NCBI GenBank assembly: GCA_043734325.1
Contig: JAYTFN010000089.1
Span: forward strand, 1-34,805
Direction: 5' to 3'
DNA: 34,805 nucleotides
Source of the DNA: Candidatus Adlerbacteria bacterium
GTDB taxonomy: Bacteria; Patescibacteriota; Minisyncoccia; Phycocordibacterales; SBAW01
The notes under the pieces were generated by a model, which was not told the origin of the DNA, made no database searches, and was given only the letters and a program-made list of their open reading frames with translations. A program made the position numbers and the translations under genes. Shown here one piece after another: positions 5,670 through 28,675 of this stretch (positions are counted from its first letter, which is position 1; each line of letters opens with the position of its first letter).

Positions 5670-5987
5670 ATGGACAATCGAAACGAACGTATACAAGAAG
5701 CATTGCGTGCTACTGCCGCAGAATATTTAGCCCGCGAAGCCGGTCGCCAGTCGTTAATCACCGTCACTGCAGTTCGCATGTCTGAAGATGGACGACGTGC
5801 GCTTATATTTATCACTGTCTTTCCTGATTCTTCTGAACAATCAGCACTTGCCTTTGCACAGAGGAGCCGCAAAGAGCTTTCGAAACCATTCAAACAGCAT
5901 GCACGAGGCGCATCACTCCCCCACATCGAATTTCGTATTGACGAAGGCGAAAAAAGCCGCCAACGCTTAGACGAGCTTTCCCAGTAG
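5670..5987 (+). CDS. rbfA: Ribosome-binding factor A
   Basis: Directly after infB; ITVTAVRMSEDGRRALIFIT and PHIEFRID motifs; 105 aa. Confidence 0.88.
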   Translation: MDNRNERIQEALRATAAEYLAREAGRQSLITVTAVRMSEDGRRALIFITVFPDSSEQSALAFAQRSRKELSKPFKQHARGASLPHIEFRIDEGEKSRQRLDELSQ

Positions 5988-6033
5988 GGCTTCGTGCGCT
6001 ACAGTAGTGGATGACTCGCCATAGCGGGCTTCA

Positions 6034-6108
6034 GTCCACGTAGTCAAGTGGTAAGACAAGAGTCTGCAAAACTCTTATGCGCGGGTTCGATTCCCGCCGT
6101 GGACTCCA
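6034..6108 (+). tRNA. tRNA-Cys (GCA), CCA encoded
   Basis: Acceptor GTCCACG/CGTGGAC-T-CCA; anticodon arm AGAGT-CTGCAAA-ACTCT; T arm GCGGG-TTCGATT-CCCGC. Confidence 0.95.
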
Positions 6109-6155
6109 AAAAGACTGGAACAAAGTGTCTAAGTAGTTTGGGTCTAGAATCAAAA

Positions 6156-6241
6156 GCCGGGATGATGAAATGGTAGACATAGGGGACTTAAAATCCCCAG
6201 AACGTAAGTTCGTGTGGGTTCGAGTCCCACTCCCGGCACCA
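6156..6241 (+). tRNA. tRNA-Leu (TAA), CCA encoded
   Basis: Acceptor GCCGGGA/TCCCGGC-A-CCA; anticodon arm GGGGA-CTTAAAA-TCCCC; long variable arm; T arm GTGGG-TTCGAGT-CCCAC. Confidence 0.95.
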
Positions 6242-6245
6242 CAAT

Positions 6246-7112
6246 ATGTTCAAAAATGAACACATGTTTATTACTTCCCTTCCGACAGAGTTTCATCCAC
6301 GGCAAGAATGGCCCGAGTACGCGGCACACCGCGATCTGCCGAGCTTTTTTCGACCAACGGTAGTTGGGACGCACCCACGGGGTATGCGACGTGGTGTATG
6401 GCCGCTCATTATCGAAGAGTACGTCAGCAACACCGAACCAATTGATTTCACCTCCGACTCTAACGCTCCAAATCGTATCATTGCATGGCGACGGGTGACC
6501 CGAAAAGACACCCCGCCCGGTTGGCACGCACTATCAAAAAAACCGTCGGCACTTGAAGGTTTTTTTGATCTTTTTCAATTTCCCGACTATGCGGCCCAGT
6601 GGATAAAAGTTGCGCGGTACGACCGACACCAGTGGCACAGCAACTACAGCACGAGGTACACTATCGAAAAGATAACGTGGAGCGAATATGCACACACATT
6701 TAAACACAGCACTGTCGGCAAAAAACTTGGCTTACTCATGGTTCGTTTGATGGAAAGAAAATGGAAGTCAGACCCCGAGCACATCATTTTTTGGGGCGCG
6801 CGCGAAAAGTCTACAGGCGAAGTTGTGGCGTGCATTGGTGTCATCAACTCTCCCAATTACCAGGCATCATATTATGCAACCGGGTGCATGCACTCAACAC
6901 AAGCCTCTACTCCGGTAATGGTGGGGCTTATAGACCACTGGTTTAAAACTTCGCAATCGCACCAAATTCGCTTTTTACATTTTGGATCATTTTGGATTCC
7001 GGGAGAGCCTAAGGCATGGAAGGGTTTCTCAACCTTTAAAATGAAATTTAAACCGCAACTTATTTTATATCCTCCGACGCTGGTACGACTCAAGTGTGGT
7101 ACATTTTTTTAG
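6246..7112 (+). CDS. Hypothetical protein, possibly GNAT/FemABX-like acyltransferase fold
   Basis: 288 aa ORF; C-terminal ASYYATG..LIDHWF..RFLHFG..WKGFSTFKMKF resembles the C-terminus of FemABX/GNAT-like proteins. Weak call. Confidence 0.45.
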   Translation: MFKNEHMFITSLPTEFHPRQEWPEYAAHRDLPSFFRPTVVGTHPRGMRRGVWPLIIEEYVSNTEPIDFTSDSNAPNRIIAWRRVTRKDTPPGWHALSKKPSALEGFFDLFQFPDYAAQWIKVARYDRHQWHSNYSTRYTIEKITWSEYAHTFKHSTVGKKLGLLMVRLMERKWKSDPEHIIFWGAREKSTGEVVACIGVINSPNYQASYYATGCMHSTQASTPVMVGLIDHWFKTSQSHQIRFLHFGSFWIPGEPKAWKGFSTFKMKFKPQLILYPPTLVRLKCGTFF

Positions 7113-7114
7113 GT

Positions 7115-7744
7115 ATGCACTGGATATTTGAAAGAAAAAATTTATTGTCCAGCAAAAATGGGCCCATTATGCTCGAGAAGTTTTTTGGTCGTCTGATGGT
7201 GCGGGCGGGCGGCGTTCAGCAAACCGGAGTGGAGCTGAACGCCATATGGCGTTATTCGTTTAAAAAGATACGGCAGTCGGTAGTCCTAAAACCGAGCGTG
7301 CTCATGCTAGGCCTGGGCGCTGGTGGAGCCCTCAAAGACCTCTACACCCTCTTTCCCGGATCAAGCATTACTACAGTCGAATACGACCCTATAATGGTTC
7401 ACCTAGCGCTAGAACTCCAGCTGTACAAACCTTACCCGTTGCCAAAAATAATTGAAGGCGACGCAGGTGACATACTTCCAACCCTATCTGAGAATTTCGA
7501 CCTCATTGTCATCGACCTATTTCAGGGCTCAAAGGTCTCATCGCTTATATCGCAAGAAAGTTTTTTAACGAATCTCAAAAAAATCTTGTCACCTCGAGGC
7601 ATTATTTTGATAAACGTATTCCGCGAACCGCAGTGCCTAGAAGCGGCACGTCGCATCTTTACACACTCGTCTCATTGGAAATACACAAGCAACACCATCG
7701 GTGCTTTTTGGGATTATTCGCCTTTGACCGAACACAGTTGTTAG
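7115..7744 (+). CDS. Class I SAM-dependent methyltransferase, spermidine-synthase-like
   Basis: VLMLGLGAGG (motif I), TTVEYDP, IIEGDA, FDLIVIDLF, LSPRGIILINV. Confidence 0.8.
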   Translation: MHWIFERKNLLSSKNGPIMLEKFFGRLMVRAGGVQQTGVELNAIWRYSFKKIRQSVVLKPSVLMLGLGAGGALKDLYTLFPGSSITTVEYDPIMVHLALELQLYKPYPLPKIIEGDAGDILPTLSENFDLIVIDLFQGSKVSSLISQESFLTNLKKILSPRGIILINVFREPQCLEAARRIFTHSSHWKYTSNTIGAFWDYSPLTEHSC

Positions 7745-7774
7745 AGTATGAATTTTCTAGTACTGTTTATTTAT

Positions 7775-7847
7775 CCGCCCATAGCTCAGTTGGTAGAGCA
7801 GCTCCCTCTTAAGGAGACTGTCCCAGGTTCGAGCCCTGGTGGGCGGA
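7775..7847 (+). tRNA. tRNA-Lys (CTT)
   Basis: Acceptor CCGCCCA/TGGGCGG-A; D arm GCTC-AGTTGGTA-GAGC; anticodon loop CTCTTAA; T arm CCAGG-TTCGAGC-CCTGG; CCA not encoded. Confidence 0.95.
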
Positions 7848-7977
7848 CAAAAGACATAACAATCCCACCTGCGTGGGATTTTGTGCTTTTGTCCGAGACG
7901 GAGCGATGTTTTGCATTTGCAAAATCGCGAGTCGGGGTCGCGAGCATATTTTGCGACGGCAAAATGTGACTTGTGAC
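7844..7977 (+). repeat. tRNA-Lys-associated structured trailer (partial copy of element family)
   Basis: CGGACAAAAG 7844-7853 pairs with CTTTTGTCCG 7886-7895; core 7896-7977 AGACGGAGC..GCGAGTCGGGGTCGCGA..GTGAC shared with 8342-8427. Confidence 0.75.
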
Positions 7978-8182
7978 GACTAATAAAAACAGCACCTGCG
8001 TAGTAGGGTCACGACCCTTATAGCGGACCTGTCCGGCAGCTTCAACGACTCGAGTTACATAGCACCTTTGGACTTTGTCGAAGGAACTCTTTCGCTTACC
8101 GTAACAAGTGAACACAGTTTTGACAACAAGACCATAGTCTACTACGTGACGGGAAAATAAATTCAGCGTACAATCGGTCTAT

Positions 8183-8264
8183 GCCCTCGTGGCGGAATTG
8201 GTATACGCGCGTGGCTTAGGACCACGTTCCGAAAGGATTAGAGGTTCAAGTCCTCTCGGGGGCA
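8183..8264 (+). tRNA. tRNA-Leu (TAG)
   Basis: Acceptor GCCCTCG/CGGGGGC-A; anticodon arm CGTGG-CTTAGGA-CCACG; variable arm TCC-GAAA-GGA; T arm AGAGG-TTCAAGT-CCTCT. Confidence 0.95.
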
Positions 8265-8571
8265 CAAGGAGGAAGCCGGCATTTGCCGGTTTTTTCGTGC
8301 CCACGAAGTACAGTGCCTGCGCACTGTGCGGAGGACTTGAAAGACGGAGCAATGTTTCGTTAGCAAACGAAACTGCGAGTCGGGGTCGCGAAAAAACGCT
8401 TGCGTCGGCAAGTGCTTTATTCGTGACCAAGTCCTCTCGGGGGCACCGAAAGAAAAGTTGGCTTTGTGCCAACTTTTTCTTTTGGTCCAAGGACTTGAAA
8501 GCCGGAAGGAGCGAAGGCGACTGAGGCGGGGTCGCGCAAATTTTCAGCAGAAAATTATGTGTGACCAAGTC
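8265..8571 (+). repeat. Two tandem tRNA-Leu-associated structured units containing inverted and direct copies of the tRNA 3' end
   Basis: 19-bp direct repeat CAAGTCCTCTCGGGGGCAC at 8247-8265 and 8428-8446; inverted T-arm copies GAGGACTTGAA 8331-8341 and AGGACTTGAA 8490-8499; shared core CGGGGTCGCG..GTGACCAAGTC. Confidence 0.85.
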
Positions 8572-8580
8572 TAATAATTT

Positions 8581-8853
8581 TTATGGCAAAAGTCCGTTTA
8601 CCGTTTCTGAGATAATACTCAATATCTTCACTGTTGAGACAATTATAAAAAGTCCAACCAAGCCCCACAACATATGCTGCTTTCCGTCACTAGTGGATTC
8701 GCCTCCACGGAGCTTCCACAAATACTGCACTATTCCCCATACGAACACTAATACCGCCAGTGAGGCAAGGAGTATAAGAATTGGATTGACTATGTAGGCT
8801 ATGAGCCGACTAAGGATAGAGCAGGTGTCTGCATCAGCAACACAACGTGGCAT
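8581..8853 (-). CDS. TrbC/VirB2-like pilin-family small membrane protein
   Basis: Two hydrophobic helices, LVFVWGIVQYL..GKQHMLWGLVGLFIIVS; part of a tandem array. Confidence 0.65.
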   Translation of the reverse strand: MPRCVADADTCSILSRLIAYIVNPILILLASLAVLVFVWGIVQYLWKLRGGESTSDGKQHMLWGLVGLFIIVSTVKILSIISETVNGLLP

Positions 8854-8879
8854 AGTATGAAAATGCTAGAGAGTAAGGA

Positions 8880-9230
8880 CTAGTTCGTTGGGAAGTGTGG
8901 AGCATTAACCGTGTTTGGCTGGTTCGTTCCGTTAAGAAGAGCACTTTGTATAAGACGAATGATGCCCCATATGGAAACCATCACAAAGAGCGCAATGATA
9001 CCATTTGCCATTATTTTTTGACCTATTCCTTTTTCAGCGTTATGGATGTATTTTATGAGACCGTAAAAGAACACAAGCATCGCTACACCTATCGAAATAG
9101 GAATAAGAAGTGCAATGATATTAGCGATAGAAACTATAAACTGCTGTATTGGCGCCAGCGTACCATATTGAGCTCCGGCGAAAAGCGGAAGTGCGAGTAG
9201 AACTGAGGAGAAGAGTGCTAATTTTTTCAT
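8880..9230 (-). CDS. TrbC/VirB2-like pilin-family protein with signal peptide
   Basis: Signal peptide MKKLALFSSVLLALPLFAGA; LVFFYGLIKYI..GQKIMANGIIALFVMVSIWG. Confidence 0.65.
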   Translation of the reverse strand: MKKLALFSSVLLALPLFAGAQYGTLAPIQQFIVSIANIIALLIPISIGVAMLVFFYGLIKYIHNAEKGIGQKIMANGIIALFVMVSIWGIIRLIQSALLNGTNQPNTVNAPHFPTN

Positions 9231-28134: not shown

Positions 28135-28157
28135 ATACTACCATTGTATGTGATCTA

Positions 28158-28504
28158 CGACTCAAATTTGCTGTCGCAAAATTTGGTCGCCGAACTCGCC
28201 TTCCGCATCGGAACGTCCGAAGGGACGTAGGCGGTTTTTGCCTTTGCTTATAGCAAAACAAAAACAACACTGCGGCCGTCACACGTAAACAAAAAAAGCG
28301 GAATTATCCGCTTTTTTGAATCGTGTGACCCTACCGGGAGTCTTTCCTTACAGGAACAGTAGGGGTTTCGTATCTCACTTCGTTTTGGAACAAAACTCGT
28401 TACGATATACTCAACCCTTTCGACTCCCGGCCGTAGGCAAAGTAGTTTGCCTACTTAGGGTCATGAATAGAAAAGGCGCCTTTCGGCGCTCATTTCTGTA
28501 CTCA
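28158..28504 (-). repeat. tRNA-Glu-associated structured trailer, two units
   Basis: 17-bp direct repeat TGACCCTACCGGGAGTC at 28326-28342 and 28505-28521; inverted copies TTCGACTCCCGG 28419-28430 and TAGGGTCATGA 28456-28466 separated by hairpin 28433-28454. Confidence 0.8.
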
Positions 28505-28576
28505 TGACCCTACCGGGAGTCGAACCCGGCTTTAAAGCTTGAAAAGCTTTCGTCCTAACCGATAGACGATAGGGCC
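28505..28576 (-). tRNA. tRNA-Glu (TTC)
   Basis: Reverse complement: acceptor GGCCCTA/TAGGGTC-A; anticodon arm AAAGC-TTTTCAA-GCTTT; T arm CCGGG-TTCGACT-CCCGG. Confidence 0.93.
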
Positions 28577-28675
28577 ATTACGGCAAATATAGCCTAAAGT
28601 GCAAAAAAATGCTATTTTGCAAACTGTTCGACCTATGAAAGGAAGAAGAATGTTAGTTCTTTCCTACTAACATCT

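Follow-up and report, generated by a model that had tools for sequence, protein, structure and literature searches.

The stretch of DNA analysed here (the window: 34,805 nt, contig JAYTFN010000089.1 of the Candidatus Adlerbacteria bacterium assembly GCA_043734325.1) raises the question of why the 3′ end of its tRNA-Leu(tag) gene reappears downstream, first inverted and then in direct orientation, and why this pattern is followed by an eroded repeat of itself. The original prediction for this locus offered three readings: a non-autonomous mobile element with ends templated from its target tRNA, a cis-antisense trailer that gates tRNA maturation, or an array of decoy att sites. The best explanation is that the region holds a tRNA-specific copy (unit 1) and an older, eroded copy (unit 2) of a widespread modular family, about 110–180 nt long, that sits directly behind tRNAs.

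The window was studied with ARAGORN for tRNAs, Rfam 15, a repeat finder, promoter and terminator scans, and RNA and DNA folding (Table 1). Labels of the type G###, C### and L### denote genomes (G000 is the source genome), contigs and loci, respectively.

Architecture and insertion of unit 1

The first copy of the tRNA 3′ end (X) belongs to the live tRNA-Leu(tag) and runs from T-loop base C56 to the first base beyond the discriminator. Next comes a terminator-like hairpin, which is similar to that of a Tyr-linked unit on contig C105. The consensus terminator scan lists the hairpins ahead of unit 2 and of a core linked to tRNA-Lys, and that of unit 1 is seen only in the fold. The inverted copy (X′) is split at the boundary of acceptor and T-stem by an inserted hairpin, for which sister elements have equivalents of different sequence. 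Its acceptor part, X′a (10 nt, one mismatch), forms a helix with 8437–8446 in the fold, and its T-arm part, X′t (11 nt), is 100% complementary to 8245–8255 and reaches back to T54; jointly they constitute the full reverse complement of the last 21 nt of tRNA-Leu(tag). Behind the core lies the direct copy, X2, pairing with X′t (helix P3) and X′a (helix P1) in both the DNA and the RNA folds. The unit (8266–8446; 181 bp) contains no open reading frame (ORF) and folds at −97.1 kcal/mol on the tRNA strand (z = −9.6, 200 shuffles), 18 kcal/mol more strongly than the opposite strand (−79.0 kcal/mol). The terminator, the inverted T-arm, the exact 19-bp copy at a period of 181 bp and the eroded second repeat up to 8571 were thus described correctly in the original prediction; the inverted acceptor end is present as well, although it had been given as 8297–8302 and is longer.

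Table 1. Coordinates of the features at the tRNA-Leu(tag) locus and of the other units in the window
Feature	Position	Strand	Evidence
Promoter-like site upstream of tRNA-Leu(tag)	8146–8174	+	promoter scan
tRNA-Leu(tag)	8183–8265	+	ARAGORN; Rfam tRNA 56 bits
X, copy 1 of the tRNA 3′ end	8247–8265	+	exact 19-nt repeat
Terminator-like hairpin and T-run, element-borne	8269–8296	+	fold, sequence reading
X′a, reverse complement of acceptor 3′ strand, discriminator and one further base	8297–8306	+	sequence reading, fold
Inserted hairpin splitting the inverted copy	8308–8329	+	RNA and DNA folds
X′t, reverse complement of T-stem 3′ strand and T-loop	8331–8341	+	repeat finder
Family A core, unit 1	8342–8427	+	covariance model R1, covariation, fold
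X2, direct copy of the tRNA 3′ end	8428–8446	+	exact 19-nt repeat, spacing 181
Ancestral terminator of tRNA-Leu(tag)	8452–8478	+	terminator scan; G079 homologue directly behind its tRNA
Unit 2, short family A	8486–8577	+	R1 70.1 bits, E = 1.4e-19
Trailer-type family A unit behind tRNA-Lys(ctt) (7775–7848)	7861–7989	+	R1 88.4 bits; terminator scan
T-loop-type element with family B core behind tRNA-Glu(ttc) (28504–28577, −)	28319–28503	−	sequence, repeats

The source genome is a fragmented metagenome-assembled genome (MAG; 654 kb in 130 contigs, 80.6% complete, 29 tRNAs found), which could favour chance similarity or an artefact of assembly. However, Logan contigs from three runs, all of one study that may include the source sample and hence no independent support, cover 7700–8900 with zero differences and zero alternative joints. 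A single contig spans the whole stretch in one run, and 8183–8571 is fully covered in the other two. A local mis-join, named in the original prediction as a possible pitfall, is therefore excluded; the architecture also recurs in hundreds of independent assemblies, and we attach next to no probability to an artefact.

The same arrangement is found at other tRNAs of the source genome. A scan downstream of all tRNAs, as the original prediction had proposed, revealed that six of the 29 (Leu-tag, Glu-ttc, Val-tac, Asp-gtc, Val-gac and Glu-ctc) have their own 3′ end duplicated directly (16–21 nt) as well as inverted (10–12 nt) within 450 nt. Tyr-gta is a seventh case, with a 12-nt inverted copy followed by the contig end. 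On the upstream side of the 29 tRNAs, which served as a control, the longest match was 9 nt. The order of the parts is constant: tRNA, hairpin with T-run, inverted acceptor part, small hairpin, inverted T-arm ending with the complement of T54–T55, core of about 85 nt, and a direct copy that begins at T-loop position 56–57 in every case. Additionally, on contig C94 (400–800) family B and family A cores are nested between inverted and direct tRNA-like 3′ ends; ARAGORN finds no tRNA on this contig.

Comparison with relatives, likewise suggested in the original prediction, yielded empty sites for two of these elements. In the seven closest tRNA-Leu(tag) orthologues (89–95% identical), the match to the window stops at the tRNA end. 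In G079, tRNA-Leu(tag) is joined directly to a terminator homologous to window 8447–8483, and the BLAST piece for window 8428–8483 overlaps the tRNA match. Relative to this empty site, unit 1 is therefore an insertion of 181 bp between T55 and C56 of the T-loop. Its copy 1 (X) probably arrived with the element, judging from a downstream context that differs from that of the relatives' empty sites. The tRNA-Glu(ttc) of G017 and G098 (100% identical to that of the window) and of G030 (93%) has no element behind it. In these three genomes the tRNA end is followed by C, as is X2 of the window, whereas in the window copy 1 has a T at this place, to which the inverted acceptor part of the Glu(ttc) element is complementary. 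Therefore, the proximal copy entered along with the terminator and the inverted copy, and the old end is the distal one; the element's own X and terminator restore the live tRNA. The direct repeat varies in length from 16 to 35 nt, with its left edge fixed in the T-loop. Recombination within the shared segment thus fits better than a fixed staggered cut, and a target-site duplication of fixed stagger was ruled out on the same grounds.

Core structure, distribution and exchange of modules

The cores linked to Leu (units 1 and 2), Lys, Val-tac and Tyr have the motif GAGYCGGGGTCGCG in common; the window contains three occurrences when one mismatch is allowed and nine, against 1.5 expected, when up to three are. 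Aligning 26 core copies from the source genome and its relatives gave a three-way junction made up of a closing helix (P3), H1, Pa, a GGG junction, H2 and Pb. P3, which closes the junction, consists of flank sequence, and its inner 4–6 pairs are maintained here and in a larger alignment of 90 matches to the covariance model R1. H1 comprises 3 bp (G-N-C with G-N′-C), the middle pair being G-C in 16, C-G in 6 and A-U in 4 of the 26 copies. In H2, GUCGCGAA pairs with UUAYYUGUGAC, including a G·U pair in 26/26 copies and two covarying pairs. The paired cells amount to 89.2% vs 72.3% in shuffles and fall to 34–40% when the partners are slid; the covariation score of 0.43 vs 0.16 was exceeded by none of 500 shuffles. 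As the G·U pairs are conserved, the fold belongs to the strand with tRNA sense. The DNA energy minimum of the unit is the same structure as that of the RNA, and good folding is confined to the tRNA-sense strand, as RNA or single-stranded DNA. The two-hairpin core of the original prediction is present, but its conserved three-way junction, its wide distribution and a whole class of units, the trailer class described below, had been overlooked.

The core of unit 1 scores 96.5 bits against R1 (E = 3.8e-28), and R1 has eight matches in the source genome at E ≤ 3.1e-4. A different core, family B, consists of a long hairpin, YACUG and a small hairpin with a UGUAA loop and is the core at Glu-ttc, Asp-gtc, Val-gac and other tRNAs. 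Of 61 relatives, 22 contain a loose exact pattern for it, with about 47 matches vs 12 for a reversed control.

Family A is widespread. A 14-nt motif with at most one mismatch was detected in 59 of 61 sampled relatives and in 24 of the 25 genera of the order. A pattern scan across species, each represented by a single genome, returned at least 120 stretches, and R1, applied to the first 100 and then to the last 20, gave 90 matches in the first 100 of these loci. Their record titles name Patescibacteria (Saccharibacteria, Paceibacterota, Kaiser-, Nomura-, Adler-, Yonath- and Taylorbacteria, and the Parcubacteria/Patescibacteria group), Elusimicrobia, or only "bacterium" (MAGs). None of the GC-rich actinobacterial and proteobacterial pattern matches among the 100 loci was confirmed by R1; among the last 20, a single Nocardia record gave a weak match (21.8 bits, E = 1.8e-4). 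Five genomes of the genus contain 38, 22, 17, 16 and 7 R1 matches. tRNA linkage was assessed for 84 of the 90 matches, the six weakest (E ≥ 3.7e-6) being excluded: a tRNA end lies on the same strand within 300 nt upstream in 66 of the 84, mostly 14–86 nt away, and 19 tRNA kinds are involved.

Two classes of units can be distinguished. In the T-loop class, the inverted copy extends from T54 to about position 65 or beyond and a direct copy of 15–24 nt stands 3′ of the core. In the trailer class, which lacks a copy of the T-arm, the core begins 31–36 nt behind the tRNA, and the gap is a long A/U-rich hairpin with a GC-rich tip. Between 3 and 7 nt of the tRNA 3′ end are part of its stem, and the final bases of the hairpin, UUGUG, can alternatively pair with CACAA behind the core. 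Units of the T-loop class are located after T55 of GGTT, which nearly all tRNAs possess, and the flank is duplicated; trailer-type units are located at the tRNA end. Tandem trailer arrays occur, for example a-b-a′ behind tRNA-Arg in G018, and some units have no terminator between tRNA and core. In one Saccharibacteria MAG (L110, ~6790–6929 oriented), ARAGORN places a tRNA with anticodon tta, which may be an ochre suppressor, 33 nt upstream of a family A core.

Spare tRNA 3′ ends behind a gene might also serve as decoy att sites that shield it, the third reading of the original prediction. However, the distal copies erode fast, a decoy would need neither an inverted copy nor a conserved core, and trailer-type units hold only 5–7 nt of the tRNA end. 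We found no evidence in support of this idea and consider it very improbable.

Cores similar to each other occur with different flanks, and similar flanks with different cores. The arm of the Glu(ttc) element in G012 (tRNA, terminator, X′a, hairpin and start of X′t) is 86% identical to that of the window, and its core belongs to family A (61 bits), whereas the window has family B. The inverted acceptor part and the T-loop base of the inverted T-arm in G012 differ where the tRNAs differ; in the T-stem, the inverted T-arm matches the distal X2 and not the present tRNA. Conversely, the cores L017 and L019, from two genera, are near-identical from the junction to the final GTGACC, except for the Pb tip, and sit behind tRNA-Glu and tRNA-Ala, each with cognate flanks. 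G076 has a core 83% identical to that of unit 1 behind its own tRNA-Leu(tag), without an inverted acceptor part, and the direct copy carries the differing acceptor sequence of that genome. Arms (X, terminator and X′) and cores are exchangeable modules. Given the swaps of cores between arms, the arms look tRNA-specific and long-lived, and the cores exchanged or homogenised. Ends templated at insertion, as the original prediction had it, fit this evidence less well than persistent tRNA-specific arms with swapped cores.

Two further observations concern variation. At L204–L228 in G018, Pa is near-identical at no fewer than eight loci, and Pb and the terminator stems differ and stay perfectly paired, a pattern that suggests concerted evolution of one part and rapid paired change elsewhere. 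At L235 (G002:C4:7726–7935), where the Glu(ttc) locus takes a different form, a family A core follows immediately on the arm (terminator, inverted acceptor part and hairpin); inverted T-arm, family B core and distal copy are lacking, and ARAGORN found no tRNA-Glu(ttc) there.

Several of these features are shared with tRNA-targeting integrase islands and their derivatives without an integrase, the cis-mobilizable elements (CIMEs), for whose position at tRNA genes sublocation rules were reportedly laid down by Williams in 2002. Such elements likewise have a direct repeat of the tRNA 3′ end starting from the T-loop (19 nt at C56 here, 16–35 nt in the sisters), supply a new 3′ end and accrete in tandem with the newest next to the tRNA. 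The locus might accordingly be read as the decayed remnant of tyrosine-integrase islands or phages at the T-loop (att remnants, CIME-like) in which the inverted copies are incidental: the direct repeat reaches to the tRNA end or past it, its length is variable, and the proximal copy is borne by the element, as in attL/attR pairs. In contrast, the units here are gene-less, only 110–180 nt long, and combine an inverted att copy with a three-way-junction core. A conserved, covarying structure of 85 nt is not random debris, and the architecture recurs at 19 tRNA kinds in many genomes with the same cores at many tRNAs. No cognate integrase was found, the source genome has a single tyrosine recombinase, and two pattern scans of a viral collection gave six stretches, none with a tRNA and one with a weak R1 match (22 bits), i.e., no real match. 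We therefore regard integrase remnants as improbable, if somewhat less so than decoys.

Mobile element or functional RNA

The reading that we favour, with a confidence about evenly divided between belief and doubt, takes the units to be mobile but non-autonomous, working as a folded single strand with a stem that is a replica of the target. Among the three readings of the original prediction, the mobile one has the best support, from empty sites, a copy number of 7–38, tandem arrays and the same core with different cognate flanks; only the templating of the ends does not emerge from the data. In the mechanism that we propose, the X′:X stem at the foot of the three-way junction would be a double-stranded replica of the target, and a recombinase or HUH-type nuclease supplied in trans would use this replica to recombine with the tRNA gene. 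New units would enter at the live tRNA and older ones be pushed outward and erode, which would account for the tandem order seen here. More tentatively, the elements may form a new class: a gene-less module, folding as a single strand, with a mirror and a direct replica of its target (the 3′ half of one particular tRNA gene) at the foot of the conserved three-way junction. The replica would serve recognition, for insertion into the T-loop, and tRNA repair, and the interchangeable cores of families A and B would be catalytic or recruit proteins.

By analogy, this mechanism would resemble the attP(+) hairpin of phage CTX mimicking dif, or the guide pairing of IS608. CTX is one of the elements that exploit Xer, with recombination at dif by XerCD. 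Val et al. reportedly described in 2005 that the folded single-stranded attP(+) of CTX mimics dif. There as here, two inverted target copies about 90 nt apart can fold into a double-stranded replica of the target, the topology after integration is site, element, inverted site, loop, site, and tandem arrays form. The differences are that the target here is the T-loop of a tRNA and not dif, that the "genome" is only a terminator, that the loop is a conserved structured core, that there are many target specificities, and that a rolling-circle Rep gene and phage genes are lacking. For IS608, Guynet, Ton-Hoang and Chandler are said to have shown that recognition of the target and of the cleavage sites occurs through base pairing to internal guides adjacent to subterminal hairpins. 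The IS200/IS605 insertion sequences (IS) and their miniature derivatives, the palindrome-associated transposable elements (PATE), share with our units a strand-specific fold with two hairpins (Pa and Pb) and strand-specific G·U/G·T pairs. Furthermore, the terminal TGAC pairs with a GTCG located immediately 5′ of the stem of Pb, bases by the foot of Pa pair with the flank (T54 and T55), and Y1 transposase homologues are common in the genus. Unlike in these systems, the flank pairing spans 7–21 nt and not 4, the flank is duplicated, no fixed target word was found, no correlation with the number of Y1 genes exists, and the source genome yielded no full-length copy in which these ends enclose a Y1 tnpA or tnpB. 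Cas12f1-like_TNB (PF07282), a marker of TnpB, has no match in the source genome.

A number of results weigh against this mobile-element reading. The original prediction had proposed to look for a co-occurring tyrosine recombinase, HUH/RAYT or reverse transcriptase; no enzyme could be linked to the elements. RVT_1 is absent from the source genome (it is present in 28 of 80 genomes of the genus). The only tyrosine recombinase, on a contig other than that of the window, looks Xer-like from the reading of a single 283-amino-acid frame. Of 80 genomes of the genus, 51 encode Y1/HUH transposase homologues (distant Y1_Tnp, 210–290 amino acids), a single genome having nine at most, but their number does not track that of the cores: G026 has no Y1 gene and 22 cores, G018 one weak Y1 match and 38 cores. 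In the source genome, Y1 genes do not adjoin cores, with one adjacency on contig C40 as the exception. A copy with an internal ORF was not found in the source genome, where loose half-motif searches gave coding-sequence noise, and no free circular or excised form was seen in the Logan contigs, the only material searched for it. About 25 near-invariant junction positions are conserved across phyla, a degree of conservation that is typical of functional RNAs more than of the ends of transposons. The alignment of the 90 R1 matches (A3; 89.8% paired vs 69.8%, G·U kept in 83/86) was fitted to the model, so its covariation leans towards that model. Finally, the reading does not account for the way in which a core reaches arms that are cognate to a new tRNA.

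Some candidates for an enzyme or an origin were considered and rejected. A retroelement origin does not agree with the absence of RVT_1 here, nor with an inverted copy that matches the gene context and not the CCA end. A core-like word beside the recombinase gene on contig C20 lies inside an ORF and is a chance match. The Y1 gene on contig C40 might have been an autonomous copy next to a family B unit; it turned out to be a separate IS with its own inverted ends. The Y1 load as such is unusual for genomes of 0.5–0.9 Mb.

Repetitive extragenic palindromes (REP/REPIN) and their associated transposases (RAYT) offer another comparison, as they are small, abundant hairpin repeats behind genes with variable copy number, and a RAYT above the NCBIfam cut-off is present (C109:122–814; 84.6 bits, cut-off 80). 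However, this RAYT and the one on C40 (634–1185 oriented) are flanked by other, unrelated 20-nt inverted ends, which have six occurrences in the genome, and neither the A nor the B core is a simple palindrome, both being associated with tRNA 3′ ends. The RAYT copy on C40, degenerate by its looks, is located some 30 nt downstream of a family B unit.

The serious rival to a mobile element, compatible with mobility though, is a role as a cellular RNA. The core would then be a functional RNA co-transcribed with the tRNA by read-through, either a trailer RNA freed by tRNA 3′ processing or a cis-acting switch in which X′ invades the T-arm and acceptor or is held by X2 in P3, deciding tRNA maturation. 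Alternatively, the core could be a ribozyme or a protein-binding RNA. The copy number would change through duplication and loss. Part of the evidence comes from the inverted copy, for which we compared 41 T-loop-type elements (tRNA within 400 nt, recognisable T-loop, inverted copy matching at least 8 of 14 positions). Where the distal copy and the tRNA differ (92 positions), X′ is complementary to the tRNA in 67 cases, to X2 in 7 and to neither of them in 18, the first figure being somewhat inflated by a few mis-extracted distal copies. In these elements, the inverted copy follows the live tRNA where X2 has drifted. In the minimum free energy (MFE) structure of a transcript ending with X′, X′ pairs with the 3′ half of the tRNA itself. 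In that of the full read-through, the cloverleaf is rebuilt with X2 and the unit forms a closed domain inside the T-loop. X′ is thus predicted to pair alternatively with the tRNA's own X or with X2. An RNA role is also in line with the usual position of the copies (66/84) close behind a tRNA on the same strand, the conservation of G·U pairs and junction nucleotides across phyla, the trailer-type units kept at the same locus in relatives with compensatory changes, and the units without a terminator ahead of the core.

Other observations do not fit an RNA role as well. Most cores, and all units of the tandem arrays, have a terminator-like hairpin and a T-run ahead of them, and the only promoter-like site detected at the locus is ahead of the tRNA, with none inside the units. 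Only a subset of tRNAs has a unit, this subset differs between close relatives, the copy number ranges from 7 to 38 within the genus, and two unrelated cores (A and B) occur on the same arm. The single RNA run available showed only tRNA-like contigs of other organisms (90–95% alike) and is uninformative on the element. We hold the RNA role to be possible rather than probable. The cis-antisense trailer of the original prediction keeps the part that concerns pairing, namely that X′ follows the live tRNA and can pair with its 3′ half upon read-through, and the mobile reading is better supported.

None of the RNA classes compared here corresponds to the units. With the RNAs in Rfam (ribozymes, T-box, tRNA-like) they share a compact junction, covariation and invariant unpaired bases, but they match no family at the gathering score, their cores are preceded by terminators, and the closing helix comes from the local flank. 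In the whole window, only tRNAs reached the gathering threshold of Rfam 15, and for 5800–9000 at E ≤ 10 all matches beyond tRNAs were at chance level, the best on the element being Bp1_162 (21.4 bits, over X2 and terminator 2) and rsmX (17.4 bits, unit 1). Group I tRNA introns differ in that the insert lies here in the T-loop and not in the anticodon loop, carries an internal terminator and has no Rfam intron match. No description of the element family was found in the literature, supplements excepted, and a preprint on bacterial tRNA mimics is, from its outline, unrelated to the element.

Other units in the window and significance

Unit 2 consists of an inverted T-arm (8489–8499), a core (8500–8565) and a 6-nt direct copy (8566–8571). 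Three repeats are shared between units 1 and 2 (8332–8348 with 8490–8506, 8377–8394 with 8523–8540, and 8417–8433 with 8555–8571), and G063 has a short core resembling unit 2 directly behind its tRNA-Leu(tag). The unit behind tRNA-Lys(ctt) is a member of the trailer class: its long hairpin extends into the tRNA 3′ end and is followed by the core, an arrangement that is also found in G028. The Glu(ttc) element has its inverted copy at 28419–28430 and its direct copy at 28326–28342. At 28141–28291 on the minus strand, behind the displaced tRNA-Glu(ttc) end, there is a degenerate family A unit of the trailer type (R1 16.6 bits, E = 0.03); the family B unit was therefore inserted ahead of an older family A unit. 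As for neighbouring genes, an ORF that converges on unit 2 (8581–8853, minus strand) matches the type IV secretion pilin family PF18895 with 28.8 bits, and a 288-amino-acid ORF between tRNA-Leu(taa) and tRNA-Lys (6246–7112, plus strand) has no match in Pfam or NCBIfam.

Taken as a whole, the element looks like an undescribed kind of mobile element or RNA. A single 0.8-Mb genome, among the bacteria with the smallest genomes, holds 38 of these structured cores. Genes for nearly all kinds of tRNA are affected and yet stay intact, as the element brings a replacement tail and a terminator. If it is mobile, an element without genes would be able to insert into an essential gene and do no harm, and this would suggest an enzyme, of the host or acting in trans, by which the folded copy of the target is read. 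Should the core function as RNA, a new ribozyme or a gate of tRNA maturation is conceivable, and the Candidate Phyla Radiation would have in this family, with its link to tRNA 3′ ends, one of its most abundant structured RNAs so far undescribed. Either way, these units are a ready marker of strain-level variation, and their duplicated tRNA ends will be misread by tRNA annotation and by island finders.

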